Source: Thermodesulfovibrionales bacterium (GTDB taxonomy: Bacteria; Nitrospirota; Thermodesulfovibrionia; Thermodesulfovibrionales; SM23-35). Taken from it: 64,000 bases of DNA. The stretch covers positions 262,918-326,917 of the forward strand of contig CAVQRT010000031.1 in assembly GCA_963715195.1 (NCBI GenBank). Reading direction: 5' to 3'. How positions within the stretch are numbered: the first letter of the stretch is position 1; each line of letters starts with the position of its first letter. Below the pieces are notes generated by a model, which was not told the origin of the DNA, did no database searches, and saw only the letters and a program-made list of their open reading frames with translations. Below are positions 2,622-44,764 of this stretch, piece by piece. Both the position numbers and the translations under genes were made by a program.

Positions 2622-2632
2622 GGAGGAAGATA

Positions 2633-2854: not shown

Positions 2855-2928
2855 AAGGCATATAATCATTCTCCTCTCTTTCGTTGTACCCATCAGTCAA
2901 GGATGAGGAGTTAGAGGAAGTTACAGGT

Positions 2929-5020: not shown

Positions 5021-5072
5021 ATGAGGCTAAGAAAGATGCTGTTGGCAGGAACAATAGAGAAAGGAGGTCGCA

Positions 5073-10108: not shown

Positions 10109-10117
10109 GACAGAGCG

Positions 10118-11089
10118 GTGTTCCCCGTTCATCGTCCGCGAAGACTCAGGAAAAATGATACGATCAGGAGAATGGTGAGGGAAACCTCACTGTCTCCTGA
10201 TCATTTTGTATATCCTCTTTTTGTTACCTCCGGCAAAGGCACACGGAAAGAGATATCCTCTATGCCCGGGTGTTATCAAGAGTCTATCGATACCGTAGCC
10301 AGGCATGCTAAGGAAGTCTTTGCGCTCGGCATTCCAGCGGTGATACTCTTCGGCATTCCCGAACACAAGGACGAGACCGGCTCGGGTGCATATGATGATC
10401 AGGGCGTCGTTCAGAAGGCTATCAGGTCAATAAAGAATAAGGTACCTGAATTGTTTGTCGCCACCGATGTTTGTTTGTGCGAATATACAAGCCACGGCCA
10501 CTGCGGAGTCATAAAAAATGGTGATGTGCAGAACGATCTAACCCTTGAATTGCTGGTGAAGGAAGCGGTTTCCCACGCGAAGGCCGGTGCTGATATGGTC
10601 GCTCCATCGGATATGATGGACGGAAGGGTCGGCACAATCCGCGCCGCCCTGGATGAAGAGGGATATGAAGAACTCCCGATTATGTCCTATGCCGCGAAAT
10701 ATGCATCGGCGTTTTACGGCCCGTTCAGAGATGCTGCCGAATCAACTCCCCAGTTCGGCGACAGGCGCTCATACCAGATGGATCCTGCCAACAGGAGAGA
10801 GGCCTTGAAGGAGGTGGCGCTTGATGTTCAGGAAGGTGCCGATATTGTTATGGTGAAACCCGCACTTGCATATCTTGACGTTATCTCAGATGTTAAGGAC
10901 GCTTTTGATGTCCCCGTGGCAGCCTACAATGTGAGCGGAGAATATTCACTCGTAAAAGCTGCCGGAAAACTCGGGTGGATAGATGAGCAGCGTGTCATGA
11001 TGGAGATACTTACCTCGATTAGGCGTGCAGGGGCTGATCTCATACTTACCTATTTTGCAAAAGAAGCCTCAAAAATTCTCAATAAATAA
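10118..11089 (+). CDS. hemB: Porphobilinogen synthase (delta-aminolevulinic acid dehydratase)
   Basis: The N-terminus [29 protein letters not shown], the zinc site [14 protein letters not shown], and MVKPA..YLD are all classic HemB blocks. GTG start. Confidence 0.95.
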
Positions 11090-11237
11090 TTATCTGCATC
11101 AAAGTTTTCCTTGACGCTTCTTTCCCCAGGACTTAGCCCAGATTATTCATATACTGTGGTACCTTGACAGGACACAATATTGTCGCTCATTCTCGGTCTT
11201 CGACCTCCGAGGAATTTTGCCTCATTATTATTGAATA

Positions 11238-11282
11238 CATAGTGTTTGAATATCTGCAAAATAAATCCGCTCAAACACTATG
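11238..11282. promoter_or_regulatory. Perfect 12-bp inverted repeat (CATAGTGTTTGA-N21-TCAAACACTATG) about 95 nt upstream of the octaheme cytochrome gene
   Basis: Read directly from the sequence. It lies in an intergenic region. Confidence 0.35.
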
Positions 11283-11377
11283 TCCTGTTAGTATCCAAGG
11301 AAATTTGTGAATTATATAGGTTAGAATGTAAGGGAAAATTTCATGCAATCATATTTATCATAGGAGGGAGGATTAAG

Positions 11378-12433
11378 ATGAAGAAGACGTCCATTATCCT
11401 GCTGTCAATGTTCGTTCTTATCGTGTCAGGGTTTCTTGCGCAGGGGTATTCTGAAGATGTCAAGAAGGAGGATTGTTTCTTCCTGTCGAGTCTTCATCAT
11501 ACGTCGAGGGGGATGGCTTACTGGTATGATAAAGCGAATGGCGGTCTTGAAACACTTACCGGCATACCGTATGCAAGTCCGAAACTCGATTGCACTAACT
11601 GTCACGTAAAGTCATGTGACGTCTGTCATAAGACGGTAACCGAAGATAAGTTGTCTTACTCTGTTAAAGCAGCGCAGAATCAGGATGTCTGTCTGAATTG
11701 CCATAAACGGGAAAAGACTCTCATGAAGATTGATAAAGATGCCAATCAGGTTGATGTCCACGTGGACAAGCAGATGCGATGCATGAATTGTCATAGAACG
11801 AGAGAAGTCCACGGTGACGGAAAGGAATATAATTCCATGAAGCAGCCTGGAGCGATCGATGCGAAATGCAAGAAGTGTCATCCGTCGGTTCCCGAAAGTA
11901 TCTCACATGAGATTCACGGGGATAGGTTGGAATGTAACGCATGTCACGTCCGTCATGTTGTAAGCTGTCAGAACTGTCATATTGAGACCATTATCAATGA
12001 GCGGAAGCGCGTAGATATCAAAGTCTCCGGATGGTTGTTTCTGATGAATTACGAAGGTAAGGTAACATCAGCAAATACCCAGACATTTGTGGTGCCGGGG
12101 AATAAGACCTTCATCTTATTTGCTCCACAGAACAGTCATTCGATCATGAGGGAGGGACGTAAGTGTGGTGACTGCCATGGTACTGATATCGTCAAACAGG
12201 CTCAGAATGGTAAGGTGAAGCTGACTTGGCTTGAAAACAATGAATTGAAGAATCTTAAGGGTGTAATCCCTGTCGTTGAGGGAGTGGAATATGATTGTGT
12301 ATATCAGGATTATAAAAACGGGAAATGGCTTCCCATCCAGAATCCACCATCACCTATGGTCCAATATAGCGGCTATGGCAAGCCCTTGACAAAGGATCAG
12401 TTGAAGAAACTGGCGCACCCGATGGGCAGGTAG
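11378..12433 (+). CDS. Exported octaheme c-type cytochrome
   Basis: Eight CxxCH motifs (CTNCH, CDVCH, CLNCH, CMNCH, CKKCH, CNACH, CQNCH, CGDCH). Signal peptide MKKTSIILLSMFVLIVSGFLAQG. SD GGAGGGAGG. Confidence 0.85.
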   Translation: MKKTSIILLSMFVLIVSGFLAQGYSEDVKKEDCFFLSSLHHTSRGMAYWYDKANGGLETLTGIPYASPKLDCTNCHVKSCDVCHKTVTEDKLSYSVKAAQNQDVCLNCHKREKTLMKIDKDANQVDVHVDKQMRCMNCHRTREVHGDGKEYNSMKQPGAIDAKCKKCHPSVPESISHEIHGDRLECNACHVRHVVSCQNCHIETIINERKRVDIKVSGWLFLMNYEGKVTSANTQTFVVPGNKTFILFAPQNSHSIMREGRKCGDCHGTDIVKQAQNGKVKLTWLENNELKNLKGVIPVVEGVEYDCVYQDYKNGKWLPIQNPPSPMVQYSGYGKPLTKDQLKKLAHPMGR

Positions 12434-14355: not shown

Positions 14356-15120
14356 ATGAAAACATTACAATTTAGAAATTGCAAAGTATGCATAAACCCT
14401 TTCTGCTCAATTATTGCGGTGATGATCATTTTCTCTTGCGTGAAAGTCATGACACCTATTGACGGTTACCGTTTGCACGCTTTTGACTATCTGATTATTT
14501 CCTTTCTGATTCTCGTTGGTTCGATGGGTTGTCTCTTCTTACACGAGTATGCACATGTTCTGGCATCGAGGAGGATAGGCTTACCGGTTAAGGAAATTAC
14601 GGTGTCATTGTTTGGAGCTTACACGTCACTTCATGGTAGCCCTTTGCAACCACGAGAGGCACTCGTTGTATCTATAGCCGGGCCTGTCGCAAATGTCTTT
14701 ATAGGAATCATTTTCTATGCAGGTTACCTTGTTTTCCTGCAATCAGATATTGTCGGTACTATATTCTTTTACCTGAGCGTTTTCAATGGTGTTCTGAGTG
14801 CTTACAATTTAATGCCAGTTATGCCTTTAGATGGAGGATTGATTGTGCGTTCCACATTGTGGTTGGTGAGCGGTAACTGGACATGGGCAACGCGAAGAGC
14901 ACTCCTCATTGGCAATGGATATGCTGTACTTTGCATTATCGCAGGAATCATGCTTGTCACCATGCAGCATAGTCTCATCGGTGCCGTTTTATGCGTTCTG
15001 GGGTTATCTCTTTGGCAAAGTGAAAAATTAGCATATCAACGAATGTTGGCAGCAAAAATATTGAACATAGTAAACCCTAAGGGCTATCGAAAGGAGGTGA
15101 TGAGAGATGCCATTCGGTGA
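14356..15120 (+). CDS. Site-2 protease family (M50) membrane zinc metalloprotease
   Basis: HEYAHV (HExxH) in a TM helix, NLMPVMPLDGG, and multiple hydrophobic segments. The start is uncertain, with alternative ATGs up to 14449. Confidence 0.75.
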   Translation: MKTLQFRNCKVCINPFCSIIAVMIIFSCVKVMTPIDGYRLHAFDYLIISFLILVGSMGCLFLHEYAHVLASRRIGLPVKEITVSLFGAYTSLHGSPLQPREALVVSIAGPVANVFIGIIFYAGYLVFLQSDIVGTIFFYLSVFNGVLSAYNLMPVMPLDGGLIVRSTLWLVSGNWTWATRRALLIGNGYAVLCIIAGIMLVTMQHSLIGAVLCVLGLSLWQSEKLAYQRMLAAKILNIVNPKGYRKEVMRDAIR

Positions 15121-15478
15121 CGGAACAGGACCTCAGGGCTTCGGGCCAAGGACAGGAAGAGGGTCAGGATATTGCGCTGGCTTTGGAATGCCTGGTTCCA
15201 TGAATTCTGTGCCTGGAGGAGCGGGCTTTGGCTTCGGCCGCGGCAGGGCAATGGGCTGCCAGTGGTTTGGAGGTGGTCGCGGATGGCGGAACTGGTATCG
15301 TGCAACTGGATTACCCCACTGGGCACGAGCAGGGTATGGATATCCTTATGCACCATCATGTACCGCCAAAGAGGAAACAAACTTTCTTAGGGAAGAGGCA
15401 GAATTTCTGAGAAAGCAGCTCGAAGACATTCAAAACCGGATCAGTACTTTAGAAAAGGCAGAAACGCAGGAAAGCTGA
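15107..15478 (+). CDS. DUF5320 family protein
   Basis: MPFGDGTGPQGFGPRTGRGSGYCAGFGMPG..., a Gly/Arg-rich middle and a C-terminal coiled coil (EEAEFLRKQLEDIQNRISTLEK). SD AAGGAGG. Confidence 0.8.
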   Translation: MPFGDGTGPQGFGPRTGRGSGYCAGFGMPGSMNSVPGGAGFGFGRGRAMGCQWFGGGRGWRNWYRATGLPHWARAGYGYPYAPSCTAKEETNFLREEAEFLRKQLEDIQNRISTLEKAETQES

Positions 15479-15610
15479 TATGTCCAATATCAGGTTGCCA
15501 TTGCGATCTCGCTCCCCCCTTCCTGTATCAAGAGCAGATGTTTTGAGTATTCTGCCTTGAGAGTGGATCGCAATGGCTTTTTTAAGAAAAGATAAGGGAG
15601 GTAACATCAC

Positions 15611-16015
15611 GTGAGAGTTGCAATATCTACAGACGGTGAATTTGTATCGGAACATTTCGGAAGATGTCCGTCTTTTACGGTAGTCGATATTGAAGAGGGC
15701 ATAGTCAGGAGTACCATGGCCTTGGAAAATCCCGGACATCAGCCAGGGGTTATCCCCCAATTTTTACATCAGAAGGGAGTCAACTGTATTGTGGCAGGCG
15801 GCATGGGAATGCGTGCAAGAGGTTTTTTTGATGAGGTCGGTATGCAAGCGATTCTGGGTATTACAGGAAGGATCGACGATGTAATCCGGAAACTTCAGAA
15901 CGGAATACTGCAGGGAGGTGAGAGTCTCTGCAAGCCAGGTGCAGGAAAAGGATATGGTCTTGACAAGGAAGTGTGTGACCATCCAGATGAAGCGCATAAA
16001 AAGTGTAAACACTAA
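15611..16015 (+). CDS. NifB/NifX-family (dinitrogenase FeMo-cofactor-binding fold) protein
   Basis: MRVAISTDG..VSEHFGRCPSFTVVD...VNCIVAGGMG. GTG start with SD GGGAGG. Confidence 0.85.
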   Translation: MRVAISTDGEFVSEHFGRCPSFTVVDIEEGIVRSTMALENPGHQPGVIPQFLHQKGVNCIVAGGMGMRARGFFDEVGMQAILGITGRIDDVIRKLQNGILQGGESLCKPGAGKGYGLDKEVCDHPDEAHKKCKH

Positions 16016-16030
16016 AGAGAGGTGATAGAC

Positions 16031-16399
16031 ATGAAAATTTGTATAACGTCACAGGAAGACAATCTCGATGCACAGGTCGATCCCCGCTTTGGCAGATGCC
16101 GATATTTTGTTATTGCTGATCCGGAAACCCTTCAGTATGAGGCGATTGTGAATCCTAATATTGATGCGAGGGGTGGTGCAGGCATACAATCAGGGCAGAT
16201 TATGGCCGAAAAGCAGGTCAAAGCAGTTGTCACGGGAAATGTAGGTCCGAATGCTTTTCAGACGCTCAATGCAGCCGGAATTACGGTAGTAACAGGTGCG
16301 TCGGGCACTGTCAGGCACGCGATAGAAAAATACAAGAACGGGGAATTAGAAACAGCCCAGGGACCAACAACCGGCGCCATGATGGCGCACGGGAAATAG
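16031..16399 (+). CDS. NifB/NifX-family protein (second copy)
   Basis: MKICITSQ...VDPRFGRCRYFVI...GAGIQSGQ...VKAVVTGNVGPNAF..L.AAGI. Confidence 0.85.
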   Translation: MKICITSQEDNLDAQVDPRFGRCRYFVIADPETLQYEAIVNPNIDARGGAGIQSGQIMAEKQVKAVVTGNVGPNAFQTLNAAGITVVTGASGTVRHAIEKYKNGELETAQGPTTGAMMAHGK

Positions 16400-16667: not shown

Positions 16668-17567
16668 ATGCGTAAGGAACAGGAATGTAAAACGAATGAA
16701 AGCAGTTCAAAGCGGAATCTCCCGACAAGGGAGGAGATTGAAGAGATGCGGGAAAAGCTTGCGCTGCAGGATAATATCGGGCGTATCAGCCACAAAGTTG
16801 TTGTACTGTCAGGTAAAGGGGGTGTCGGCAAGAGTACGGTTGCTACCAATATAGCAGTCGCCCTGTCTGTAAAGGGACAGAAGGTCGGACTGATGGATGT
16901 TGATATCCATGGTCCGAGTATTCCTAAAATGCTGGGACTTGAAGGAAACGTACTGAGAGGAACAGAAACAGGGCTTACGCCGATAGTTTATAGTGATAAT
17001 TTACGGGTGATGTCAATCGGGTTTATCCTGAGGAGTCAGAACGATGCAGTTATTTGGAGGGCACCACTGAAACACAAGCTCATAAGAGATTTTCTTACCG
17101 ATGTGAAATGGGGTGAGATTGATTATCTTATTATTGACTCTCCTCCAGGAACCGGAGACGAACCTCTTTCTGTTGCTCAGTTGATTGAAGATGCAGACGG
17201 AGCTGTCATTGTGACAACCCCTCAGGATGTAGCCCTTATAGATGTACGCAAGGCTATAACGTTTTGTCGTCAGGTAAACCTTCCGGTTTTGGGGGTTGTT
17301 GAGAATATGAGTGGCTTTGTTTGCCCTCATTGTGGTAAGACGGTGAATATATTTAAAACTGGTGGTGGTGAATCAATGGCATCAGATATGGGCGTGCCTT
17401 TTCTCGGACGTATACCACTGGAACCGAAGATTGTCGATGCAGGCGACAGCGGAAAACCGTATTTTGAGTACTACCGGGAGTCGGAAACCGCAAAGGCTTT
17501 CAATAGGGTAATAGAAACCCTGCTCTTGTTGAACTCTCAAAGGAAAACTGCTTCTTCAGGAGAGTGA
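16668..17567 (+). CDS. Mrp/NBP35 (ApbC) family Fe-S cluster carrier ATPase
   Basis: Deviant Walker A VLSGKGGVGKSTVATN, the CPHCG cluster-bridging motif and GRIPLEP. Confidence 0.9.
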   Translation: MRKEQECKTNESSSKRNLPTREEIEEMREKLALQDNIGRISHKVVVLSGKGGVGKSTVATNIAVALSVKGQKVGLMDVDIHGPSIPKMLGLEGNVLRGTETGLTPIVYSDNLRVMSIGFILRSQNDAVIWRAPLKHKLIRDFLTDVKWGEIDYLIIDSPPGTGDEPLSVAQLIEDADGAVIVTTPQDVALIDVRKAITFCRQVNLPVLGVVENMSGFVCPHCGKTVNIFKTGGGESMASDMGVPFLGRIPLEPKIVDAGDSGKPYFEYYRESETAKAFNRVIETLLLLNSQRKTASSGE

Positions 17568-21649: not shown

Positions 21650-23633
21650 CAGCAGGGAAAGACCTGCTGGTTGCCCTTGCCGGACAGCCAAATGTCGGCA
21701 AATCAACAGTTTTCAATCTGTTGACCGGCCTGTCTCAGCATGTCGGTAACTGGCCGGGCAAGACGGTCGAAAAAAAAGAAGGTTTTTGTTCCACGAATGG
21801 CACAAGGATAAAAATCGTAGACCTTCCCGGCAGCTACAGCCTGACTGCCTATTCTGAAGAAGAGAAGAATAGCGAGAGACTTTATCATTAATGAACGGCC
21901 GGACGCGGTTGTTCTCATGGCTAACGCCTCGGCACTCGAAAGAAGTCTATATCTCCTCGCGGAGTTTCTGCTTTTAAAAGCTCCGGTCATTTTTGCCCTC
22001 AATATGACGGATGTGGCGGAGCAGCAGGGGATCCGGATTGATGTCGGCCTTCTCGAAAAATACCTCGGGGTTCCTGTTATCCCCATGATCGCTTCAAAAA
22101 ACCGGGGTACCAAAGCATTGATCTCCGAGATCCTTCTCCTTACAGAAGGAAAAAAGGAAAACAGGCCTTCTCTGGCCGAAGTTTCTGATGACCATAAAGA
22201 GATCTTTCTTGAGCTGGCCGATATTCTCGAACAATATATTACCCCGCCGTATCTGACAAAATGGACTATTACGAAAATTATGGAGGGTGATCCTGATATA
22301 ACTGAGAAGATGAGCCGAACTGTCCGGCCCGATTCGTGGAACAAGGTTCAGGCCCTCTTGAGGAAACACGAAGATTCACTTCTTGCTGTCGTCAAGGGGC
22401 GATATGACTGGATTGAGGGCGCTGTTCGCGCTTCTCTTTCCGAGTTCAAGAGGGGGCAGATCCTTCTGACGGATCGACTGGATCATGTTCTCACGCGTCC
22501 TGTGTTTGGGATCCCGATTCTTCTGGGTGTTCTTGCCCTTGTTTTTTCGCTAACCTATGGCTTGGGGTTGCCGTTACAACAACTGCTCGAATCCCTCATG
22601 AACTCTCTTGCGGGCTGGGTCGAACCGTTTCTCGGGAAATCATTCTGGCTGAGGGGAATCATCGTCGACGGTTTACTTGGTGGAGCGGGAACAGTTATGA
22701 CATTTCTCCCGGTGCTTTTCTTTTTTTTTGCGGCCATGGCATTTCTCGAAGACGTGGGATATATGGCAAGAGCTGCTTTCGTCATGGACAGATTTATGCA
22801 TGTGATCGGACTTCACGGGAAAAGTTTTCTTCCTTTCTGTTTGGGCTTCGGCTGCAATGTTCCGGCTGTCATGGGTGCGAGAATCCTGGAATCAGGCAGG
22901 ATACGGTTCCTCACAATCTTCCTTACGCCCTTTGTTCCCTGCACTGCTAAGCTGGCTGTCGTCACGCTTATTGCAGCTGCCATATTTGGGAAGACTGCGC
23001 TCATCATGTCGTGGGCGCTCGTCGCCGGAAACATTTTGATCCTCGGTTTTGCGGGCTTCATAGCGAGCAAGTTCCTTTTCAAAAAACAGCACATGCCTTT
23101 TATCATGGAACTTCCTTTTTATCACAAACCGAACCCGAGAACGATAGGAATGGTTGTCTGGAAAAGGATTACAGCCTTTATCAGGAAGGCCGGAACGATT
23201 ATTGTGATATTTTCCGTGCTTCTTTGGTTATTGTCTCATATTCCAGGCGGACATATCGAAGGCAGCATTCTCGGTTTGATAGGGCAGTCGATTGAGCCTG
23301 TCGGGCGGCCCAATAGGGCTTGACTGGAAGATGATCGTCGCGCTCCTGGCGAGTGTCACGGCGAAGGAAAACTCGATAGCAGCACTGGGGGTACTCTATG
23401 GTGTTGGAGAAGAGGGTATTAGGGGAATTCTGCCGACTGTGATGAGTCACGCATCAGCACTCTCTTTCCTCGTGATACTTATGCTGTTTGTACCCTGTGT
23501 TGCCACGCTCGTGGTCATGAAACAGGAGATGGGTGGATGGCGTTGGTTCTTGTCTTCTTTCCTCTTCATGCTTGTTCTGTCTTATGTATCCGGTATGGCT
23601 GTCTATCAGTTTGCTCTCATGGTCGGACTATGA
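21646..23633 (+). pseudogene. feoB: Ferrous iron transporter FeoB, split by two single-base frame disruptions
   Basis: The G-domain ([20 protein letters not shown]) sits in frame [29 protein letters not shown] continues in another frame after about 21860. GPIGLDWKMIVALLASVTAKEN continues in a third frame after about 23305. The three ORFs are 21646..21891, 21917..23323 and 23292..23633. Confidence 0.85.
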
Positions 23634-27020: not shown

Positions 27021-27148
27021 ATTTTCCTCAAGCGAAGAAAAGATATTTGCCATAACTATACACAATCTTATTGGGTTTGCACAAAAAAAGCAGCACATAG
27101 GGAAAAGAACACCTTGCTATTGTTATGGGCATATGCTTATAATTAAAT

Positions 27149-27481
27149 ATGTCGAGACCGAGAAAATGCAGAGTCATTCAATGCAAACCCGATGCAACAT
27201 ATTTTAAGCCACGGGGGATACCGTTAGTGGATCTCGATGAGATCAGCATTTCGATTGATGAGCTTGAATCAATAAGGCTTGCGGATTTCGAGGGCCTTTA
27301 TCATGAAGACGCCGCTCTGAAAATGAAGATCTCGAGGCAGACATTCGGGAGAATCCTCAATGAAGCGCGCAGAAAAGTTGCCGAGTGCCTCTTGAAAAGT
27401 AAAGCCTTGAAAATAGAATTACCAAAAAAGGAGGAGCTGTATGAAAGCATGTTTTCCGGTAGCAGAAGTCAAAGGAATTGA
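27149..27481 (+). CDS. DUF134 (UPF0251) putative DNA-binding protein
   Basis: MSRPRKCR.....P....FKPRGIP......I....DE.E.IRL.D.EGL..E.AA..M.ISR.TF.R.L..AR.KVA. Confidence 0.8.
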   Translation: MSRPRKCRVIQCKPDATYFKPRGIPLVDLDEISISIDELESIRLADFEGLYHEDAALKMKISRQTFGRILNEARRKVAECLLKSKALKIELPKKEELYESMFSGSRSQRN

Positions 27482-27821
27482 CAGTGAAATTTATGGTCAT
27501 TTCGGTTCGGCCCCAGCGTTTATTATAGTTGAGACTGACGATAATACAGTGACCACGATTAAGAACAACGATCAGCATCATGCCCACGGTGCATGCAACC
27601 CGCTGAAGAAATTTAACAACAATCAGGTTGACGCGCTCGTTGTTGGGGGAATTGGAATGGGAGCATTAAATGTATTAAATCAATCCGGCATCCGCGTATT
27701 CCAGGCCCAGGCTCCAACAGTGCAGGAGAATATCGTTTTCCTGAAGGCGGGAAACCTGCCGGAGTTTTCTCCACAGCATACCTGCGCAGGTCATGGTCAT
27801 GGGGGTGGCTGCGGACATTAA
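27441..27821 (+). CDS. NifB/NifX-family protein (third copy)
   Basis: HFGSAPAFIIVE, HHAHGAC and VDALVVGGIGMGALN.LN..GI.V. Confidence 0.8.
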   Translation: MKACFPVAEVKGIDSEIYGHFGSAPAFIIVETDDNTVTTIKNNDQHHAHGACNPLKKFNNNQVDALVVGGIGMGALNVLNQSGIRVFQAQAPTVQENIVFLKAGNLPEFSPQHTCAGHGHGGGCGH

Positions 27822-27986
27822 GAACAGTCTCATGATAGTCTGCGTTTTTAATGCGTCATCCTGAACGAAGGCAAGGAATCTCCAATTCATAAGAGAATGG
27901 ATACCCGACAAGAACCTCGGGCTGACGTATAAGCGAGAAATCATTCAATATCATTGAATGTCGGACATAACTATATTTAGAAGTTA

Positions 27987-28382
27987 ATGAAAACAAGGAG
28001 GTTATTATGGCAAAGGGAAAGAAGAGAATTGCGATCATTGGCGTGCAAAAATATCAAAGGGGTCTCTTGTGTCGGTGGTTGCCTGAAATGTTTTAAGGGA
28101 ATCGCTGAGAGGGCCGGTGAGTATGAGCGCTGGAAAGATTATGATGTTGAAGTCATAGGAATGGACGATTGTGGCGGCTGCCCCGGTGTTATTATGCCCA
28201 AACTCCTTCTCATGAAAGATATGGGGAAGCTTTATGACAGAGATTTTGATGCAGTGCATCTCGGCACGTGTATTATGAAAGCGACTCAGACAGCAAAATG
28301 CCCGATCGATGTTGAAAAACTAAAAGGGCTGATTGAAACGAAGATGGGGAAAGAGGTTATTCTGGGCACACACGCTTATTAA
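27987..28382 (+). CDS. CGGC-domain protein. The N-terminus is probably frame-disrupted.
   Basis: CVGGCLKCF...DDCGGCPG...HLGTC. A better start (SD AAGGAGG, ATG at 28007, MAKGKKRIAIIG) sits in a frame one base off the main ORF and joins it at about 28043. Confidence 0.7.
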   Translation: MKTRRLLWQRERRELRSLACKNIKGVSCVGGCLKCFKGIAERAGEYERWKDYDVEVIGMDDCGGCPGVIMPKLLLMKDMGKLYDRDFDAVHLGTCIMKATQTAKCPIDVEKLKGLIETKMGKEVILGTHAY

Positions 28383-28453
28383 ATCCATCATACGCTTTCA
28401 TCGCATTTAATCAGGGCGGTCGGCGTTTTAATCTGTTTCTAATTGATGCTTCT

Positions 28454-28783
28454 ATGCAAAGGTTCAAGAAATATATAGGCAAAGACTTTATTCTCGGAAA
28501 TGTAAAAGACACTGAAGCACTGAGGTCAACAGGTTTCCTCTGCGATAATATCCCTGATTCAATAGGAGATTTTGACGAACTCGAATTCTTATCGGAATGG
28601 GATGGAAAGCAACTTCTCATGTGTCTCGCAGTATTAACGGGAAAAGTCAAAAGAATCATGTTCGTTATGAGAAACAGTGAAGACCCTGATGATGTGAGAC
28701 CACTGAGTGAAGGCGAACTGAGGGATTTTCTGAATCAGAAAGGCGACCAGTTAGTCAGTTTTTTTGAAAGTATCACTCAGTGA
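28454..28783 (+). CDS. Hypothetical protein
   Basis: A 109-aa ORF with no motif I recognise. It fills an otherwise empty gap on the operon strand. Confidence 0.4.
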   Translation: MQRFKKYIGKDFILGNVKDTEALRSTGFLCDNIPDSIGDFDELEFLSEWDGKQLLMCLAVLTGKVKRIMFVMRNSEDPDDVRPLSEGELRDFLNQKGDQLVSFFESITQ

Positions 28784-28792
28784 GGATACTGT

Positions 28793-29110
28793 ATGATCTA
28801 TCGATTATCCAAAGGTCTCAGCAGGATTTGTGACATGAGGGTGAAAAATGTTATGAAAAACCTCATACGGGGACTTTTTTGCTGCATGGTTATTTTGATG
28901 GGTTACTCGGCCCATGCCGGAAGCTGGGATCAATGCAAAGGTTGCCATGATGGGGCATTTGCTCCTGACGCGAAAGCTCTCAAACAAAAATACAAGACAG
29001 TGGACGATTTGATAAAGGCTGCGAAAAAGTCAGATGAGCCTCTGATGAATCGCTATAAACAGGATGAAGAGTTTCTGAGAAAGGCTGCAAAGGATATCGG
29101 CCTGCAATAG
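28793..29110 (+). CDS. Small exported monoheme c-type cytochrome
   Basis: A single CKGCH and a hydrophobic leader LFCCMVILMGYSAHA. The start is probably at an internal ATG (28835 or 28853). Confidence 0.6.
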   Translation: MIYRLSKGLSRICDMRVKNVMKNLIRGLFCCMVILMGYSAHAGSWDQCKGCHDGAFAPDAKALKQKYKTVDDLIKAAKKSDEPLMNRYKQDEEFLRKAAKDIGLQ

Positions 29111-37317: not shown

Positions 37318-38576
37318 ATGAGTGATTCAACAGGTTGGGATTGGGACACAAAAGAAAAATTAGTAGCAAACATTGATGAGTGGAGAAAAAAATATTATGC
37401 CATCCGTGATCTTGTCCCCAGTGATGACGGCGAAAAAATGGCCACGATCGTTAAGAACGAAGACCGCAGATTTACCACCTGCGTCAATGGCGACGTATGG
37501 GAAGAAACCTTCGAGAGGGTCTATTCATTAAAATTCACCCCGGACGGTCAGCTCGTTTCGCTTACGTACAGAGACTATGAATGGGCCGTCGCAGTCGATC
37601 ACGAGATGTGGGAGGAAAAGTTCGATTACCTGTGGAATCTTACCATAAGTCCTGATGGCAAAAGCATTGCAGTCAATATACGAACAGGTGAGATGACAAG
37701 CGGGGTTTGTCTGAACGGGAAGACGTGGGAAAACAATTTCCCCGAGGCGAGAGATCTCATGTTAAGTCCTGACGGAAAAAGGACTGCATCTCATGTTCAG
37801 GTAACCCCGCGTGCCGAACTAGATATCCACGGTTTTTTAAAGAAAAATTGGACAGTTGCCGTGGATGGGACTACCTGGGACACCACCTTCTTGACAGCTT
37901 GGGGGTCTGCTTTCAGTGACGACAGCAATCATGTGGCTGCTATAGGAATGACAGACTTGTCTCAGTACACGATCGTTGTTGACGGCAACCCTTGGGAGCA
38001 GGTTTATTCGGCGCTGTATGGGAGCCAATTTTCAAGCCCAAGAGTACTGATGTTATTGCCCCTGTGCAGACACCCAAGGGCTGGACTCTTGCAATGAACG
38101 GAAAACCGATATGGAGTAATTTTTCGCAGGTATGGAAGCAAACATATAGTCCTGATGGTAAATTGGCAGCTGTTGTTGCGGTTGATGTCGGGAAATGGAC
38201 GGTAGCAGTTGATGGTATACCATGGAATGCTGTGTACAACCAGATGGTGTTATCCCCGATATTCAGTCCTGACGGGAAAAAGGTTGCGGCTGTAGTTAAA
38301 AATAATAATCGATGGACAGTTTCTGTGGATGGCGCTGTATGGTCAGAAACCTTCGATAACATATGGGATCCGGTTTTTAGTCCGGGTAGCGATATCCTGA
38401 TAGCAAAGGCTGAGAAAAACGGAAGATATTTTGTTACGGTGAATGGAAAAATCGGGAAGAAGGATTATGAGTGGCTCTGGAACCCCGTTTTTAATTCCGA
38501 TGGGACAAAAATCCTGATCAGAGCTATGGATAAAGGTAAGTATTACCGCAGAATAGTGTCTGTAAACGAAATCTAA
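37318..38576 (+). pseudogene. Cytoplasmic beta-propeller-like repeat protein (SPDGK/W-x-W repeats), split by one frame disruption
   Basis: About nine roughly 45-aa repeats of the form W..F..(V/L)W.(P/L).(F/I)SPDGK..A.......W.V.VDG..W. The ORFs 37318..38097 and 37992..38576 join at about 38012 (...PWEQVYSA / VWEPIFKPKS...). Confidence 0.55.
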
Positions 38577-38597
38577 ATTACATAGGTAGGGGAAATT

Positions 38598-39269
38598 ATG
38601 GAATTTTTAGGAAGCACGGCACTATACAACATCCTCAGAGGTCCTCTTGTGTGGGTTGCTTTTCTTGTTTTTATCGGGGGGAGCAGTTACAGGATTTATA
38701 CCCTGCTTGATCTCGCAAAAAAAGAGAAAGTCATTTTTCCATTCATCAGCCTGAAAGCCACCCTGAAGTCTCTTTTCCACTGGGTTATCCCCTTTGCTTC
38801 AAGAAACTGGAGACTCAGGCCTGTGATGACGGTGGTAACGTTTTTATTCCATATAGGTCTTGTTTTTACCCCTATCTTTCTGCTCTCCCATAATATCCTC
38901 TGGCGTGAATCCTGGGGAATAACATGGTGGAGCCTGCCTGAAAATATCGCTGATATCATGACCCTTATTGTTATTTTCACCTGTATTTTTTTCTTTCTCA
39001 GGAGGATTTTCACGCCGGAGGTCAGATTTGTTACATTTACGTCGGATTATGTTTTGCTCGCTGTTTCCTTTCTCCCTTTTTTCACCGGATTTCTTGCGTA
39101 TCACCAGTGGGCTCTTCCGCATACAGCGATGGTAAATCTCCATATCCTTTTTGGTGAAGTCATGTTGATTGCAATTCCTTTCACGAGACTGGGCCATATG
39201 TTTTATTTCTTCTTGACGAGGTCATGGATGGGTTCCAATTTTGCCCTTTGGCACACAAGAGACTGGTAA
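38598..39269 (+). CDS. hmcE: NarI/DsrM/HmcE-type integral-membrane di-heme cytochrome b subunit
   Basis: 223 aa with about five hydrophobic helices and conserved His in helices (FHWVIP, LFHIGLVF, NLHILFGE). It lies directly upstream of the HdrD-like gene. Confidence 0.7.
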   Translation: MEFLGSTALYNILRGPLVWVAFLVFIGGSSYRIYTLLDLAKKEKVIFPFISLKATLKSLFHWVIPFASRNWRLRPVMTVVTFLFHIGLVFTPIFLLSHNILWRESWGITWWSLPENIADIMTLIVIFTCIFFFLRRIFTPEVRFVTFTSDYVLLAVSFLPFFTGFLAYHQWALPHTAMVNLHILFGEVMLIAIPFTRLGHMFYFFLTRSWMGSNFALWHTRDW

Positions 39270-39295
39270 CGAGTTCGGTATAGAGGAGGACAAGA

Positions 39296-40691
39296 ATGGC
39301 GGTAAAGAATACAGCGAAAGAAGCCGTAAAAGAAAAAGTGATAAGCAGGGAATTCAAGGAATATGTGCGGGATGTCAATCCCGATAAGGGTCTTGATGAA
39401 ACGATAGCGAACCTTACGCCGGAAAAGATAGAAAAGACTATTAAGGCGGTTATCGGCGGGCGTTCTTCAAGGATTAAAGCGGTTATGAATACCTGTATCC
39501 ATTGCGGCCTCTGCGCTGAGGCTTGCCAGTGGTATCATTTCCAATGACAAAGATCCAACCTATGCACCGGTAGCAAAGATGAGGATGACGATATGGGAGA
39601 TGCTAAAACGGGACGGTAAGGTTGATGCCGAATTCATAAAGCAATGCGCACGGATAGTGTTCACAGAATGTAACATCTGCCACCGCTGCAGCATGTATTG
39701 CCCGTATGGGTTGGATATTACCTTTATCATCGGTATGGTCCGCCGCATCTGTTTTTTACTCGGGGTCATTCCCCAGCGCCAGTTCGACCAGGCTGAAGCC
39801 CATATCGCTACGTTGAATCAGGTCTGGCTTTCGCAGAATGACTGGCTTGATGCCGTGCAGTGGCATAGAAGAAGAGTCAGGGGCGGATTATATAGACCTG
39901 CGTATTCCTATTGATAATGAGGGAGCAGAGGTTATGTTCTTGCCTCTCGGCGCAGAGCCGAAGACGGGGACGTACCACATAGAGCGTACAGCGAAGATTA
40001 TGCTTGCTGCAGGAGTGAACTGGACGGTACCCGGGTAAGGGTGACTGGGACTGCAGCAGCATGTCCATGTTCGTCCGTGACATGGTGACCATGCAGAGGA
40101 TCGTGAGGGGGCTTTATGAGAATGCAGCCAGATTGCGAATTAAAACAATGATGTTGACTGAGTGAGGGCACCCTCGCTTTGCCACAAGTTTTGTGGCACC
40201 GCCGATGCTGGGATACAAAGAACTCCCCTTTGAAGTGAAGCAGACGGGTGAAGTGTTACTATGACCTTCTCAAGAGCGGGAGGATAAAGATTGACCCAAG
40301 CAAAAAGATTAAAGTACCTGTTACGCTTCAGGACCCGTGCAACATTATCGGACGGGCAGGGGCAGCGGAGAAATTCAGGTATATTGTCAATGCAACCTGT
40401 GAGGATTTCCGGGAAATGACGCCGAACCGTGAGCATAACTATTGCTGTAATGCAGGTGGCGGACTGGCAGCGTTGTCGAACTGGGCAGCGCATAAAGCGA
40501 AGGGAAACAGGGTGAAGGCCGAGCAGATTAAGGCAACGGGTGCGAAGATTGTCATTACACCATGCCATAACTGCAGTACCGGTATAAAAGATGTAATCAA
40601 AATCTGGGACCTCGGTGTAAAGAATATGTTTTTTGATGAATTACTCGTAAATACCATGGTAATGCCTGATGAATTTAAAGTACAGAAATAA
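39296..40691 (+). pseudogene. hmcF: HdrD/DsrK/HmcF-type cytoplasmic Fe-S protein (2x[4Fe-4S] plus two CCG-type domains). It has four single-base frame disruptions and one in-frame TGA.
   Basis: CIHCGLCAEAC and CNICHRCSMYCP. The second CCG domain is DPC...YCCNAGGG...PCHNC. Conserved sequence can be followed through five frames, with junctions at about 39539, 39864, 40033 and 40247. A TGA sits at 40163..40165. Confidence 0.75.
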
Positions 40692-40712
40692 AGCGGGAAG
40701 GATGAGAATATT

Positions 40713-42389
40713 ATGAAAAAAGGGTTAATTGTTTTTGCCGTCGGATTTTGTTATCTCATCTTGATCATTTACGGTATCGGTGTAATCTATTCTGTGGAAA
40801 CTCCCACTGAGAAAACAGAAGTTGTTCAAAAGGTCCCGGTTGAACAGCTCAAGGATAAAATTTCCATTGCCCATGCCGATATCTTTGGTTCGCTTGAACG
40901 CCCTCAGGTGATTTTTGATCACAAGAAGCATATTGAAGCACTGGTCAAGGATGGCAAAAAGGATTGGGAAACCTGCGACTCCTGCCATCCCTGGAATGAA
41001 GACAAGACGCATATGTCCTTTATTTTTCCCCAAAAGGTCGCAAAAAAAGATAAAGACTCCTACATGCATGCTTACCACGATGAGTGCATGGATTGTCACA
41101 AGGAGATGAGTTCCGAGAAAAAGAAAAGCGGCCCTGTCGTCTGCGGCGAGTGTCATGTTGAAAAGCTTGCAGCGTTACAATATATATATCCGGCCGCAGA
41201 ATTTAGTTACGAACATCATGATAACCATGACAAGAAATTAAAAGAAAAGAATATACAAGACAACTGTGCTTATTGCCATCATATTTATAATGAAGAACTC
41301 GTCTATGAAAAGGGCAAGGAGTGGTCATGTTATTACTGCCACGAGATCGGCAGAAAGACAGGTCCGGTTCTTGCCGAGGAGACAAGAATAATCGGCAAGA
41401 AAGGCCTCGGTCTGGACAGGGTCTCCCATACGCGATGCCTCAATTGCCATCTCTACTATAAAAAGCAGGATGAAGGAAAGAAGAAAGCCAAGGACGAAAA
41501 AGAGATTCCGATTGAATGTGCGCAATGTCATACGGGTAAATACAAGACGATAGCGGAACTGGAAAAGGTTCCCCGGCCGGATAGCGGACAGGCAGAAAAA
41601 GCTTTTATAGACGTTGACAAGGCAAAAATGAAGGGGGTTCCCTTTGACCATAAGAGCCATCAAACCCAATCCAAGACATGCCGGGGATGCCACCACGAAA
41701 CCCTGAATGCATGCAAAGAATGTCACACGCTCACCGGGAATCCGGATGGAGGGAACGTAAATATTGCTGGGGCGTACCACGAAATTTCTTCTGAACAGAG
41801 CTGCTCTGGATGTCATACGGTCAAGAAAGCTGAGAAAAATTGTAACGGATGCCACCATGCAATCATGCCTGTCGATGCCCAGACAAAGGGTCCTAAGAAG
41901 GCAATTTGTGCAATCTGCCATTCCGGAAAGCGGGAACTCCTTCCCGCAACAAAACTTTCCATCGCCGGACTTGATACAGAGAAGGTCAAGAAGGAGGTGG
42001 AAGTAAAGATCCTTGAGAAGGAATATGAACCTTCTAAGTTCCCGCATATAAAGATTATTGAGAAGATGGTAAAAATTTCGAATGATGACAAGTTAGGATC
42101 CTATTTCCACAGGGATCTCCAAACACTCTGTGAGGGATGTCATCATCAGAGCCGGGCAGAGGCAGAGGCAAAGAAAGACGAGCCGCCTTATTGCAGGAAC
42201 TGTCATTCCATAGCATTTGATCCCCAGCGAATCAACAGGCCAAGATTACTTGCCGCCTACCACCGTCAGTGCATACAGTGTCATCAAAAGATGGAACTTG
42301 AGAAACCGAAAGAATGCAAGGAATGTCATAAGGAAAAAGAACTGCGTCCGGAATTCGTTCTTTCAAAGCCCAGTGAAGTAAGCCGGTAG
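40713..42389 (+). CDS. hmcA: Sixteen-heme high-molecular-weight cytochrome c (HmcA-type)
   Basis: Sixteen CxxCH motifs counted in 558 aa, with an N-terminal signal/anchor helix. Confidence 0.9.
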   Translation: MKKGLIVFAVGFCYLILIIYGIGVIYSVETPTEKTEVVQKVPVEQLKDKISIAHADIFGSLERPQVIFDHKKHIEALVKDGKKDWETCDSCHPWNEDKTHMSFIFPQKVAKKDKDSYMHAYHDECMDCHKEMSSEKKKSGPVVCGECHVEKLAALQYIYPAAEFSYEHHDNHDKKLKEKNIQDNCAYCHHIYNEELVYEKGKEWSCYYCHEIGRKTGPVLAEETRIIGKKGLGLDRVSHTRCLNCHLYYKKQDEGKKKAKDEKEIPIECAQCHTGKYKTIAELEKVPRPDSGQAEKAFIDVDKAKMKGVPFDHKSHQTQSKTCRGCHHETLNACKECHTLTGNPDGGNVNIAGAYHEISSEQSCSGCHTVKKAEKNCNGCHHAIMPVDAQTKGPKKAICAICHSGKRELLPATKLSIAGLDTEKVKKEVEVKILEKEYEPSKFPHIKIIEKMVKISNDDKLGSYFHRDLQTLCEGCHHQSRAEAEAKKDEPPYCRNCHSIAFDPQRINRPRLLAAYHRQCIQCHQKMELEKPKECKECHKEKELRPEFVLSKPSEVSR

Positions 42390-42404
42390 CAAGAGGAGGA
42401 CTGA

Positions 42405-42518
42405 ATGTATATATTCGAACAACTGTTTTCCCATCACGGATACGAATATGCGGTTGCCGTGCTGGCGATGTTTGTTTTTATCGCGTTTTATATGATTATT
42501 ACATCGGAGAGAAAATAA
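42405..42518 (+). CDS. 37-codon single-TM micro-protein (possible HmcD equivalent)
   Basis: MYIFEQLFSHHGYEYAVAVLAMFVFIAFYMIITSERK. Excellent SD (AAGAGGAGGA) 4 nt upstream. It is below the ORF-track size cutoff. Confidence 0.45.
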   Translation: MYIFEQLFSHHGYEYAVAVLAMFVFIAFYMIITSERK

Positions 42519-42537
42519 ACGGCATGGAGGCGAACGT

Positions 42538-43566
42538 ATGAGTATAGACAGAAGGAAATTCCTGAAGCACTCCTTAACCATGGCTGGAGCAACGTTGCTC
42601 AGCGGTGGATCCATTGCCCATGCTTTAGATAAACGCGATCCTTCTATTCTTTCGACCGGAAACACCGCAAATGCAAGAAACTGGAAGCTATGGGTCGAGA
42701 AGTCTGAAAGCCTTACCCCGGAAAAATATGGCGTTCTCGTTGATACAACTGTCTGTATCGGATGCCGCAGATGCGAGTGGGCATGCAATGAATGGAATAA
42801 AAACCCAAACAGGCCGATAAAGGAGTTTGAAGCGTCGGTATCACAACAAAAATCTGTTTTCGACACGGTCCGGAGAATGCATGCCGGCAACTTTACGGTG
42901 GTTAATCGCTTCATAAGCTCTAAAGACGGCAAGCCGATATACGTGAAGAGGCAATGCATGCACTGCGACGATCCCGGCTGTTTATCCTCATGTTTTGTCG
43001 ATGCATACAGAAAAGCCAAAAATGGCCCGGTTGTCCATAACGCATCGGTATGTATCGGGTGCCGCTATTGCATGGTTGCCTGCCCCTTTGACGTGCCCGC
43101 ATATGAATACTATGCTCCGTTAAACCCGCAAATCACAAAATGTACGTTTTGCTTTGACAGAATATCGCAGGGCGGGGTCCCGGCCTGTGTCGAGATTTGT
43201 CCTGCGGGAGTACTGACCTATGGGAAAAGAAGCGATCTTATGAAACTTGCACGCGAAAAGATAGGAAACAACCCTGATAAATATATTGATCATGTTTACG
43301 GAGAATATGAGGTGGGAGGTACAAGCTGGCTTTATTTGTCGTCAGTTCCTTTTCATGAAATAGGTCTGAGAACAGATGTTGGAACAACCCCTACACCAAA
43401 ACTCACTAAGGGATTTCTTATTGGTGTCAAGATGTTCGAAATAGTCGCCGCATGGCCTCTTGTTTTCGGGGCCTATTATACAATCTCAAAGGCTCGGGAA
43501 AAAACAAGAGCGGGCCATGAAGCATCCGCTGCTGGAAAGGAAGAAGGTCATGGCGAAAAACACTAA
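42538..43566 (+). CDS. hmcB: Tat-exported 4x[4Fe-4S] ferredoxin-type subunit (HmcB/NrfC/PsrB-like) with a C-terminal TM anchor
   Basis: Twin-arginine leader DRRKFLK...AHA. Clusters CIGCRRCEWAC, CMHCDDPGC, CIGCRYCMVACP and CTFC...C.EICP. Confidence 0.85.
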   Translation: MSIDRRKFLKHSLTMAGATLLSGGSIAHALDKRDPSILSTGNTANARNWKLWVEKSESLTPEKYGVLVDTTVCIGCRRCEWACNEWNKNPNRPIKEFEASVSQQKSVFDTVRRMHAGNFTVVNRFISSKDGKPIYVKRQCMHCDDPGCLSSCFVDAYRKAKNGPVVHNASVCIGCRYCMVACPFDVPAYEYYAPLNPQITKCTFCFDRISQGGVPACVEICPAGVLTYGKRSDLMKLAREKIGNNPDKYIDHVYGEYEVGGTSWLYLSSVPFHEIGLRTDVGTTPTPKLTKGFLIGVKMFEIVAAWPLVFGAYYTISKAREKTRAGHEASAAGKEEGHGEKH

Positions 43567-44764
43567 TTCTTGGTTTCGGGAAAAGATACTTCTTGGCAAG
43601 TCTAATAGAGATTACATTATCAGCAGTGCTACTCCGGGGAATTTTATCGCAGGTCTTATCATCGTCTATGGGGTTATCGTCATGGTTTACCGTCTTTTCT
43701 TCGGTCTCGGACCCTCGACGAATCTCTCTGATAACTATCCCTGGGGCTTCTGGATAGGGTTCGATATCCTTATCGGGATTGCTTTGGCAGCTCCGGGCTT
43801 AACCCTTGGAACAGCAGTCCATCTCTTCGGGATGAAGAAATATCACCATTTCGTCCGCCCTGCTATTCTCTCAAGTCTTCTCGGATATATTTTTGCGGTA
43901 TTTGCGCTTCTTTTCGACCTTGGCCGTTACTATCGGATCCCCTATCTCCTGGGATGGTCATGGGGTTTTTCTTCAGTGCTGTTTTTGATCGGCTGGCATT
44001 TCTTCCTGTATATCAACATCTGCCTCATTGAGTGGAGTCCTGCGCTTTTTGAATGGTTGAATCTCAAGAAACTCCGCGAATTTTTTCAGAGGGCGGCAAT
44101 ATGGGCAACTATTTTCGGAGTCATTATCGCCGGAGGCCATCAGTCTGCGCTTGGTGGGTTGTATCTGATTGCCCCTGCAAAACTTCACCCCCTCTGGTAT
44201 TCAATGTTCTTGCCGGTTTTTTTCCTTTTATCCGCAATATTTGTAGGCATTGCGATGGTGATCGTGGAAAGCACGATTACTCACAAGGTGTTTAAACATC
44301 AGCTGAAGGATTTTAACCAGGCTGAATTTGACAAGCGGACCATGGGTCTTGGCACGGCCGCTGCAGCGGGTTTATTCATCTACTTTATTCTCAAAATATT
44401 TGATCTGGCTCATTCAGACAACTGGGCATATTTGAACACATTTTATGGTTACTGGTACTTGCTTGAGGTCCTGGGCTTTGTTCTCCTGCCGGCAATGCTT
44501 TTCGCATCGGGCGTTAGAAACGGGAATGCAAAGCTTATTCGCCTGACGGCAGTTTTGACGGTGGCCGGTGTGATATTAAACCGATTGAATGTCTCTATCT
44601 TTGCCTATAACTGGCAATTCCCTGCATCAATGAAGTATTACCCGAAATGGATGGAAATTTCACTGTCTTTCGGGGTTGTAGCAATGTTGATTGTCGCGTA
44701 CCGCTTTATTGCCAACAGAATGGCAATCATGTACGATCACCCTGATTACGGTTCAGGTCACTAA
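43550..44764 (+). CDS. hmcC: NrfD/PsrC-family integral membrane subunit (HmcC-like)
   Basis: About 400 aa with 8-10 hydrophobic helices. The ATG at 43550 is preceded by GGAAAGGAAGAAGG. The ORF is open from 43460. Confidence 0.85.
   Translation: MAKNTNSWFREKILLGKSNRDYIISSATPGNFIAGLIIVYGVIVMVYRLFFGLGPSTNLSDNYPWGFWIGFDILIGIALAAPGLTLGTAVHLFGMKKYHHFVRPAILSSLLGYIFAVFALLFDLGRYYRIPYLLGWSWGFSSVLFLIGWHFFLYINICLIEWSPALFEWLNLKKLREFFQRAAIWATIFGVIIAGGHQSALGGLYLIAPAKLHPLWYSMFLPVFFLLSAIFVGIAMVIVESTITHKVFKHQLKDFNQAEFDKRTMGLGTAAAAGLFIYFILKIFDLAHSDNWAYLNTFYGYWYLLEVLGFVLLPAMLFASGVRNGNAKLIRLTAVLTVAGVILNRLNVSIFAYNWQFPASMKYYPKWMEISLSFGVVAMLIVAYRFIANRMAIMYDHPDYGSGH

Follow-up and report, generated by a model that had tools for sequence, protein, structure and literature searches.

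Does the TGA triplet that interrupts an iron-sulfur (Fe-S) protein gene of a Thermodesulfovibrionales bacterium end the protein, or is it read as selenocysteine (Sec)? The gene lies at 39296..40691 on the forward strand of a 64,000-nucleotide stretch of contig CAVQRT010000031.1, called the window here, in which all positions are counted from the first letter. It encodes a cytoplasmic Fe-S protein related to TmcB, HmcF and DsrK, with two [4Fe-4S] ferredoxin motifs and one CCG domain. As given, the gene falls into five frame segments in a three-frame translation. Once four inserted bases are taken out of it, 463 codons remain with one in-frame TGA, at 40163..40165 on the same strand. The comparisons described below suggest, with a probability of roughly 0.85, that this TGA is a selenocysteine codon in the TmcB-like Fe-S subunit of a hybrid Tmc/Hmc complex, where it would specify residue 289 of the corrected protein, the position of the cysteine in the T/GECGH motif. 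For the gene family as a whole, the selenocysteine reading appears to stand on ground that is as firm or slightly firmer.

The reconstructed protein scores highest against TmcB among the NCBIfam families (492 bits, with 365 for HmcF and 166 for DsrK), and every one of these scores is below the equivalog cut-off of its family (735 bits for TmcB, NF045724; 750 for HmcF, NF045711; 400 for DsrK). As the best family is TmcB but its cut-off is not reached, the protein is called TmcB-like. Pfam finds Fer4_8/Fer4_17 and a single CCG match in it, which corresponds to the one complete motif (C...CC...CxxC; 40338..40574, forward strand) of a noncubane [4Fe-4S] cluster. The cysteine codons of this motif start at 40338, 40443, 40446, 40563 and 40572, and the residues that they encode (C347, C382, C383, C422 and C425) are invariant in an alignment of 15 full-length homologues. 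In the same alignment, the column of the TGA is an invariant cysteine within E288-C289-G290-H291. The protein thus has the two features by which single-CCG disulfide reductases of the DsrK/HmcF/TmcB type are recognised, one complete CCG motif and a lone T/GECGH cysteine. A profile search of the PDB returned one distant match only (9ojn_A), and no solved TmcB or DsrK.

A TGA or cysteine codon and the hairpin behind it

The codon column was followed through 80 loci from species-representative genomes and, in addition, through metagenome contigs. TGA is present in 27 related loci, all of them with the context TE-TGA-GHP. Their hosts are metagenome-assembled genomes (MAGs) of the Nitrospirota/Thermodesulfovibrionia, one Thermodesulfatator sp. 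and one Thermodesulfobacterium geofontis. A cysteine codon, TGC or TGT, is found at the column in 58 loci obtained as DNA (54 genome loci together with L016 and L086-L088). The earlier note on this DNA, made from the letters of the window, had named an alignment of orthologues as a check of its selenocysteine proposal, and the column indeed carries either TGA or a cysteine codon. Its coordinates for the TGA and for a hairpin downstream (40181-40197) are exact, and so are the flanking translations that it quoted, RLRIKTMMLTE-TGA-GHPRFATS and AKIVITP-C-HNCSTG. Dozens of close homologues, 72-98% identical, have been called as proteins of 280-288 residues that end in ...MMLTE or ...MVLTE, which means that the gene callers stop at the same TGA. 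As TGA is also the usual stop of 11 of the 34 long open reading frames (ORFs) of the window, the codon has undergone no genome-wide reassignment.

Selenocysteine typically stands in for a redox-active cysteine. The earlier note had aligned the codon with the first cysteine of a cluster-binding CxxC. The position is right, but the residue does not belong to a working CxxC, because the first CCG motif is degenerate and a lone cysteine survives in it (PMC10861901). A BLASTP comparison of the N-terminal pseudo-CCG half with the C-terminal CCG domain showed no significant internal repeat, so that the proposed correspondence of the two motifs rests on the literature and not on detectable similarity. 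DsrK, HmcF and TmcB have been described as carrying a single CCG motif, and the strictly conserved cysteine of T/GECGH as the relic of a lost second one that is probably catalytic (Barbosa et al., PNAS 2024, PMC10861901). It is therefore proposed that the TGA residue is better described as a lone, putatively redox-active cysteine than as a cluster ligand, a role that would suit selenocysteine better.

Downstream of the codon, the transcript can form a hairpin, UGCCACAA-GUU-UUGUGGCA, at 40180..40198 of the forward strand, with an 8-bp stem and an apical loop at 40188-40190. The central part, GCCACAA-GTT-TTGTGGC, occupies 40181-40197, and a U-A pair extends the stem to 40180-40198. Counted from the T of the TGA, the stem (40181) begins at 18 nucleotides (nt) and the loop at 25 nt, leaving 22 nt between the UGA and the loop. 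The first loop position, G40188, is invariant and is followed by a U, and the 19-nt hairpin folds with -9.7 kcal/mol. The published criteria for the bacterial selenocysteine insertion sequence (bSECIS) comprise a loop of 3-9 nt, an upper stem of 4-16 bp, a G in the first two loop positions, 16-37 nt from the UGA to the loop and a minimum free energy (MFE) of -7.5 kcal/mol or lower. With its 3-nt loop, 8-bp stem, leading G, spacing of 22 nt and -9.7 kcal/mol, the window hairpin is inside all of these limits, which bears out the earlier suggestion that its distance and loop type are compatible with a bacterial SECIS element.

The hairpin is kept in all 25 aligned TGA orthologue sequences, 23 of them distinct, and 94% of the stem cells in the alignment are paired. 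At two pairs, A:U has been exchanged for U:A by compensatory changes, at 24-30 in L017 and at 25-29 in L022-L026, and the second of these swaps alters the encoded dipeptide from SF to CY. The entropy of third positions is about zero at codons +5 to +10, three four-fold degenerate codons among them; at degenerate codons upstream of the TGA it is mostly 0.6-1.9 bits. The four closest Cys-type relatives (L016, L086, L087 and L088) have no hairpin at this place (-0.9, -2.7, -1.5 and 0 kcal/mol). Their G+C content of 32-43% and their likeness to the window segment, with which they share up to 38 of 48 bases, are the properties of the control, in which these low-GC sequences took the place of the 54 GC-rich Cys loci. 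The hairpin structure is conserved, covaries and is specific to the UGA forms.

The codons that follow the TGA behave as coding sequence. Between the TGA and the next in-frame ATG, codons +1 to +13 (GHPRFATSFVAPP; 40166..40204, forward strand) are conserved at the protein level, with synonymous variation at +2, +3, +4 and +12. The amino acids at +1 to +4 (G-H-P-R/L) and at +10 to +13 are conserved while the third positions vary, a sign of translation across the TGA. Every complete locus has a further 172-185 codons of open frame after the TGA, and the relatives have no frameshifts. The next ORF called in the related contigs encodes about 160 residues with the CCG domain, in the same frame as the upstream ORF. 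In L003/L004, for instance, the gene calls are 10001-10867 and 10907-11392. The entries P0006-P0066 come from dozens of MAGs and metagenomes in which the gene is split into an '(Fe-S)-binding protein' of 280-288 residues and a CCG ORF of about 160 residues. The TmcB-like selenoprotein gene is systematically mis-annotated in public gene calls.

In a neighbour-joining tree, computed without support values, several Cys forms are nested inside the Sec clade. This nesting and the identical SECIS across the clade suggest that selenocysteine arose once and that reversions to cysteine followed. The wider proposal is a tentative one that may well not hold: that the whole TmcB-like clade, from the Thermodesulfovibrionia to Thermodesulfobacterium and Thermodesulfatator, uses selenocysteine at T/GECGH, with Sec as the ancestral state and several reversions to Cys.

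Selenocysteine machinery in related genomes

The MAG of Nitrospirae bacterium RBG_13_39_12 (GCA_001805125.1) carries a TGA-type gene on MHEF01000029 (L022) and, on MHEF01000142 (L093), both selA and selB. SelB is widespread among the MAGs of Thermodesulfovibrionales. Between 3 and 10 selenoproteins each have been listed for Thermodesulfovibrio yellowstonii, T. thiophilus, Thermodesulfobacterium geofontis and Thermodesulfatator species (PMC5029168 supplement), with 3-5 for Thermodesulfovibrio and Thermodesulfobacterium, and a complete selABCD set has been reported for the Thermodesulfovibrio/Thermodesulfobacterium groups (PMC5389517). ARAGORN found no tRNA in the window, in L093 or in L086; Rfam has a tRNA-Sec match in L086 where ARAGORN had none, and the latter program thus misses tRNAs of this type. 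Taken through each of the sequence-level tests proposed for it, namely the Sec/Cys column, the SECIS criteria and Sec machinery in the lineage, the selenocysteine reading has held.

The families Se_S_carrier, TusA and YedE-like are tied to selenium and sulfur trafficking, and members of them occur near two relatives of the window gene. The closest Cys-type homologue, P0001 (72% identical), is encoded in L086 (JGI Ga0209270_1003860, 1826-6187) outside any Tmc operon. Its gene is directly upstream of a tRNA-Sec gene and selB, with TusA-like and YedE-like (Sulf_transp) genes on the flanks. The tRNA-Sec match (RF01852, 60 bits) extends over 3195-3343, that is over 149 nt for a model of 91 positions, and overlaps the start of selB. 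In L004 (DCVG01000066.1, a UBA2194 relative), a Se_S_carrier gene (PF11823), a TusA gene and two Sulf_transp (YedE-like) genes lie at 1738-3610, about 7 kb upstream of the Tmc operon; at the syntenic place of the window, no counterpart of these genes was found among the ORFs scanned.

Objections and rival explanations

Several observations weigh against the selenocysteine reading. As given, the window gene does not yield a single protein on translation. This 1.4-kb gene contains four of the seven indels of the window, and the adjacent tmcD has a fifth, which places five of seven within 2.3 kb, a clustering stronger than uniform error predicts. No tRNA was detected in the 64-kb window, and no selA, selB, selC or selD among the approximately 50 ORFs scanned in it, and Sec decoding in this genome is thus deduced from its relatives. 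A scan for pairs of ORFs joined by TGA gave no other convincing candidate for a selenoprotein gene in the window. The hairpin criteria are loose, as 2.5% of all TGA triplets in the window precede a hairpin of the same quality, with 8 or more bp in the stem, a G among the first two loop positions and a spacing of 16-37 nt. Being this common after random TGAs, a hairpin is weak evidence alone, and the case rests on comparison and conservation. Plain MFE values do not discriminate the TGA loci from the 54 distant Cys loci (means of -11.6 and -12.0), a comparison that is uninformative because the latter are GC-rich. No SECIS or other Rfam family was matched, either over the whole window at gathering thresholds or within 40100-40300 at E values up to 10, and this null is likewise uninformative, since Rfam has few bacterial SECIS models. 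Finally, an in-frame GTG at codon +10 is invariant, so that translation might re-initiate there.

Two other loci of the window bear on the use of TGA. The triplet at 28781-28783, between ORFs of the same frame (28337-29110), was considered as a Sec site and rejected as an ordinary stop; the ORF downstream of it is a small cytochrome c gene, which begins with a Met of its own and a stretch resembling a signal peptide and contains a CxxCH haem motif. A cluster of NuoE-like, NuoF-like and NuoG/FdhA-like (895 residues) genes at 2884-7760 resembles an NAD-linked formate dehydrogenase or hydrogenase module. Its FdhA-like ORF is without an in-frame TGA and is thus not a formate dehydrogenase of the Sec type.

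The frequency of equally good hairpins, 2.5%, is what would speak for a mere coincidence of a nonsense mutation with a chance hairpin. This explanation is effectively refuted and its probability is negligible, because 27 other loci, from two phyla and with protein identities as low as 56%, have the same TGA and hairpin, and because the hairpin shows compensatory changes and suppressed synonymous variation. It is also conceivable that the TGA is a true stop between two subunits, a 288-residue ferredoxin-like protein and a CCG protein of about 160 residues that would start at GTG +10 or ATG +14, comparable to HdrC and HdrB. Dozens of assemblies have the gene divided like this in their public gene calls, methanogens have HdrC and HdrB as separate proteins (PMC10861901), and besides the invariant GTG an ATG at +14 or +15 is common. 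The stop would, however, fall exactly on the invariant and probably catalytic cysteine, and codons +1 to +9, conserved as protein with synonymous variation, are apparently translated. The GTG is fixed because it is inside the stem, and L009, L023, L025 and L026 have no such ATG. Moreover, the hairpin is confined to the TGA forms, the Cys forms having lost it, whereas a plain stop would need no hairpin, and the Cys forms are nested among the TGA forms in the tree. Two separate subunits are thus highly unlikely. A third explanation accepts readthrough and changes the amino acid: the UGA would be recoded, at least partly, as cysteine by a selC* tRNACys, giving Sec or Cys according to the selenium supply. 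Such tRNAs, with GCA or UCA anticodons, have been reported in exactly the two lineages that have the TGA form, Thermodesulfovibrio and Thermodesulfobacteria, and in E. coli the opal codon is read as Cys by a UCA form (PMC5389517). In that survey, however, selC* with an opal anticodon is tied to selB* and cysS* only in Desulfobacterales and Syntrophobacterales (PMC5389517), and none of the loci examined here showed a selC* gene. Dual decoding, which is suggested by the presence of selC* tRNACys in both lineages, is speculative and very improbable.

While the selenocysteine reading concerns the codon, the integrity of the window copy is decided by the four extra bases. They are absent from L001, L002 (97% identical), L003 and L004, and no base is missing from the window gene. 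The first is a T at 39535 (GGTA[T]CATTTCC), the second a G or C in CAGTGGCATAG at 39862..39863, the third one G of CCCGGGTAA at 40033..40035 and the fourth one T of GTGTTACT at 40255..40256, all on the forward strand, each causing a frameshift and each specific to the window. Programmed frameshifting was rejected, as the inserted bases are present in no relative. The earlier description of the other lesions as indels was correct, since the TGA is the only stop in the 463-codon ORF after their removal. The corrected ORF differs from that of L002 by 47 synonymous and 8 non-synonymous codons, which points to purifying selection. Similar lesions are found elsewhere: tmcD is split by a 2-nt insertion (GG) near 38001-38002, not present in the 97%-identical L001, and feoB (21650-23633) consists of three frame segments, with one +1 shift at about 21860, where GAAAAGAATAGC has an A too many, and another at about 23290. 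A suspected frameshift near 17550, in the gene of MrpORP, was dismissed because the ORF that follows encodes a separate zinc-ribbon protein. All seven indels of the window, four in tmcB, one in tmcD and two in feoB, are insertions, and the shifts in feoB, being of the same type as those in tmcB, suggest that errors throughout the assembly are biased towards insertions.

Bacterial mutation favours deletions. The window copy might nevertheless be a real, recently inactivated pseudogene, in which the TGA and the hairpin would be remnants of a Sec gene that is functional in the relatives alone. Such an origin would explain why there are four frameshifts within 720 nt and one in the adjacent tmcD while tmcC, hmcA, hmcB and hmcC are intact, a concentration greater than that expected if errors, about 7 per 64 kb, were spread evenly. 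The gene, on the other hand, has no nonsense mutations, no deletions and few non-synonymous changes, and the ratio of 47 to 8 is unlike that expected after neutral decay over the time that four indels would take. Every one of the seven indels, the two in feoB included, is an insertion, and the hairpin and TGA context are identical to those of intact relatives. Decay of the gene is thus unlikely, and the four insertions are probably errors of assembly or sequencing, in view of the uniform type of the seven indels, the lack of other inactivating changes and the signature of purifying selection. The gene in the organism is then probably intact, with the TGA as its only internal stop. Confidence in this is lower than in the selenocysteine reading of the family, and expression of the window copy depends on whether the four insertions are real.

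DNA of the same strain was sought in several ways. An exact 38-mer search of metagenome contigs and an exact-protein look-up of TmcC gave no match, and look-ups of HmcA and HmcB gave no same-strain DNA covering the insertion sites, as the short contigs start past the last site. Several independent short-read contigs of close strains break in or just after the 3' part of tmcB (40262-40690): L001 ends at about 40262 and L002 at about 40519, L089 starts at about 40473, and a Logan contig starts about 30 nt before hmcA. These breaks hint at strain heterogeneity or at a difficulty of assembly.

The Tmc/Hmc operon, a proposed mechanism and known systems

The TmcB-like gene is the third of six genes, all on the forward strand, in the order tmcD-tmcC-tmcB-hmcA-hmcB-hmcC (37318-44764). 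The first, a TmcD-family gene (37318..38576), matches positions 2-236 and 225-412 of the NCBIfam TmcD_fam profile with its two pieces. The second (38598..39269) encodes a cytochrome b-like membrane anchor of the TmcC family (NCBIfam, 276 bits, above the cut-off of 240), which is predicted to be the partner to or from which TmcB transfers electrons. Downstream of tmcB are genes for an HmcA-like cytochrome c with 16 haems (40713..42389; 463 bits, above the cut-off of 400), an HmcB-like Fe-S protein (42538..43566; 362 bits, below the cut-off) and an HmcC-like NrfD membrane protein (43460..44764; 471 bits, below the cut-off). The tmcC and tmcD neighbours are those expected of a TmcB gene, though the cytochrome is HmcA-like, with 16 haems, and not TmcA. 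The same order recurs in the related contigs L003 and L004. The operon is a hybrid of Tmc and Hmc, with neither the tmcABCD nor the hmcABCDEF order of Desulfovibrio.

Repeated clusters of small genes for DUF5320, DUF134, NifX-like (Nitro_FeMo-Co) and CGGC-domain proteins lie elsewhere in the window, at 15104-16399 and 27143-28382. They adjoin the gene of an MrpORP Fe-S carrier (16668-17567), and the same set is found near the Tmc operon in L003 and L004.

By combining these observations, it is possible to propose how the protein would be made and how it might work. As the ribosome reaches the UGA, the hairpin at 40180-40198, 15 nt downstream of the codon, would act as a bacterial SECIS and recruit the complex of SelB, GTP and Sec-tRNASec, the binding of SelB being itself a prediction. 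Selenocysteine would be inserted as residue 289, and translation would go on into the CCG domain to give one protein of about 463 residues. In the folded protein, the Sec would replace the lone conserved cysteine of T/GECGH beside the single noncubane [4Fe-4S] cluster. From there it might act as a nucleophile on a protein disulfide or trisulfide, for which DsrC is the obvious candidate substrate. The electrons might be supplied by the quinone pool or by HmcA, the periplasmic cytochrome, with HmcBC/TmcC as the route from the latter. The incorporation of selenium, the catalytic role and the substrate are in this scheme predictions made from sequence.

The reduction of disulfides or trisulfides by DsrK, TmcB and HmcF with one noncubane [4Fe-4S] cluster is a mechanistic question in sulfate respiration. 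A Sec conserved at T/GECGH across two phyla would support the proposal that the cysteine at this place is catalytic, and would provide natural Sec/Cys pairs for comparison. Such pairs, if the selenocysteine reading is true, are independent evolutionary evidence for a redox-active nucleophile rather than a cluster ligand in enzymes of the DsrK type, and a ready-made system in which the mechanism of the single noncubane cluster can be put to the test. The clade would then have been hidden in databases as pairs of truncated ORFs. As public MAGs present the gene as ORFs of 288 and about 160 residues, the selenoproteins of Nitrospirota would be undercounted and the Tmc/Hmc complex misdescribed. In the window, a biological signal, the TGA with its SECIS, can be told apart from what is probably assembly noise, the insertions.

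Among known systems, TmcB of TmcABCD and HmcF of HmcABCDEF from Desulfovibrio vulgaris are among the closest. They are the top NCBIfam matches, they share the single CCG motif and the T/GECGH cysteine, and the window gene adjoins homologues of both tmcC and tmcD and of hmcA, hmcB and hmcC. It differs from them in scoring below both equivalog cut-offs (735 and 750) and in its hybrid gene order, and the characterised proteins have Cys. DsrK of DsrMKJOP, the menaquinol:DsrC-trisulfide oxidoreductase, has the same architecture with a single CCG motif for a noncubane cluster, and the TGA aligns with its strictly conserved GECGH cysteine (Cys329 in A. fulgidus), which has been proposed to be catalytic. 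The homology is only distant, however, at 166 bits where the cut-off is 400, and the window gene lacks a dsrMJOP context. HdrD4 and HdrF2 of Desulfobacterium autotrophicum HRM2 are of the HdrD type (a fusion of HdrC and HdrB) with CCG domains, and are annotated as selenoproteins, but they belong to another phylum and to loci with glpAB, etfAB or hdrA.

The hairpin resembles the SECIS of the E. coli fdhF type and the bSECIS model in being a stem-loop that forms within the coding sequence directly after the UGA, with a G and then a U in a small loop and a distance between UGA and loop within 16-37 nt. It differs in having no sequence similarity to the E. coli element and no Rfam match, and in forming a perfect 8-bp helix without a bulged U.

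A selenoprotein family with the Sec motif UGH, the 'Fe-S oxidoreductase (GlpC)-like' proteins, has already been catalogued (Zhang et al. 2006, PMC1794560; 2026 review, PMC13188914). It combines a 4Fe-4S ferredoxin-like part with a CCG domain, and the same 4Fe-4S dicluster and cysteine-rich CCG domain are found by Pfam in the window protein. The stretch TE-TGA-GGG-CAC would read E-U-G-H, which contains the U-G-H of that family (here TE-U-GH). In both cases Cys homologues are widespread and the hosts are anaerobic metabolisers of sulfur or sulfate. The likeness to the GlpC-like representative WP_174406253.1 (PTHR43551) is one of motif and domain types, not of sequence alignment. What sets the window gene apart is that it encodes a TmcB-like subunit of a membrane-bound Tmc/Hmc complex, in Nitrospirota (Thermodesulfovibrionia) and Thermodesulfobacteria. 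A search of a limited collection of papers brought up none that connects selenocysteine with DsrK, or with TmcB in particular. The kind of selenoprotein is thus already known, and what is new is the TmcB-like subunit of a Tmc/Hmc complex as a member of it.

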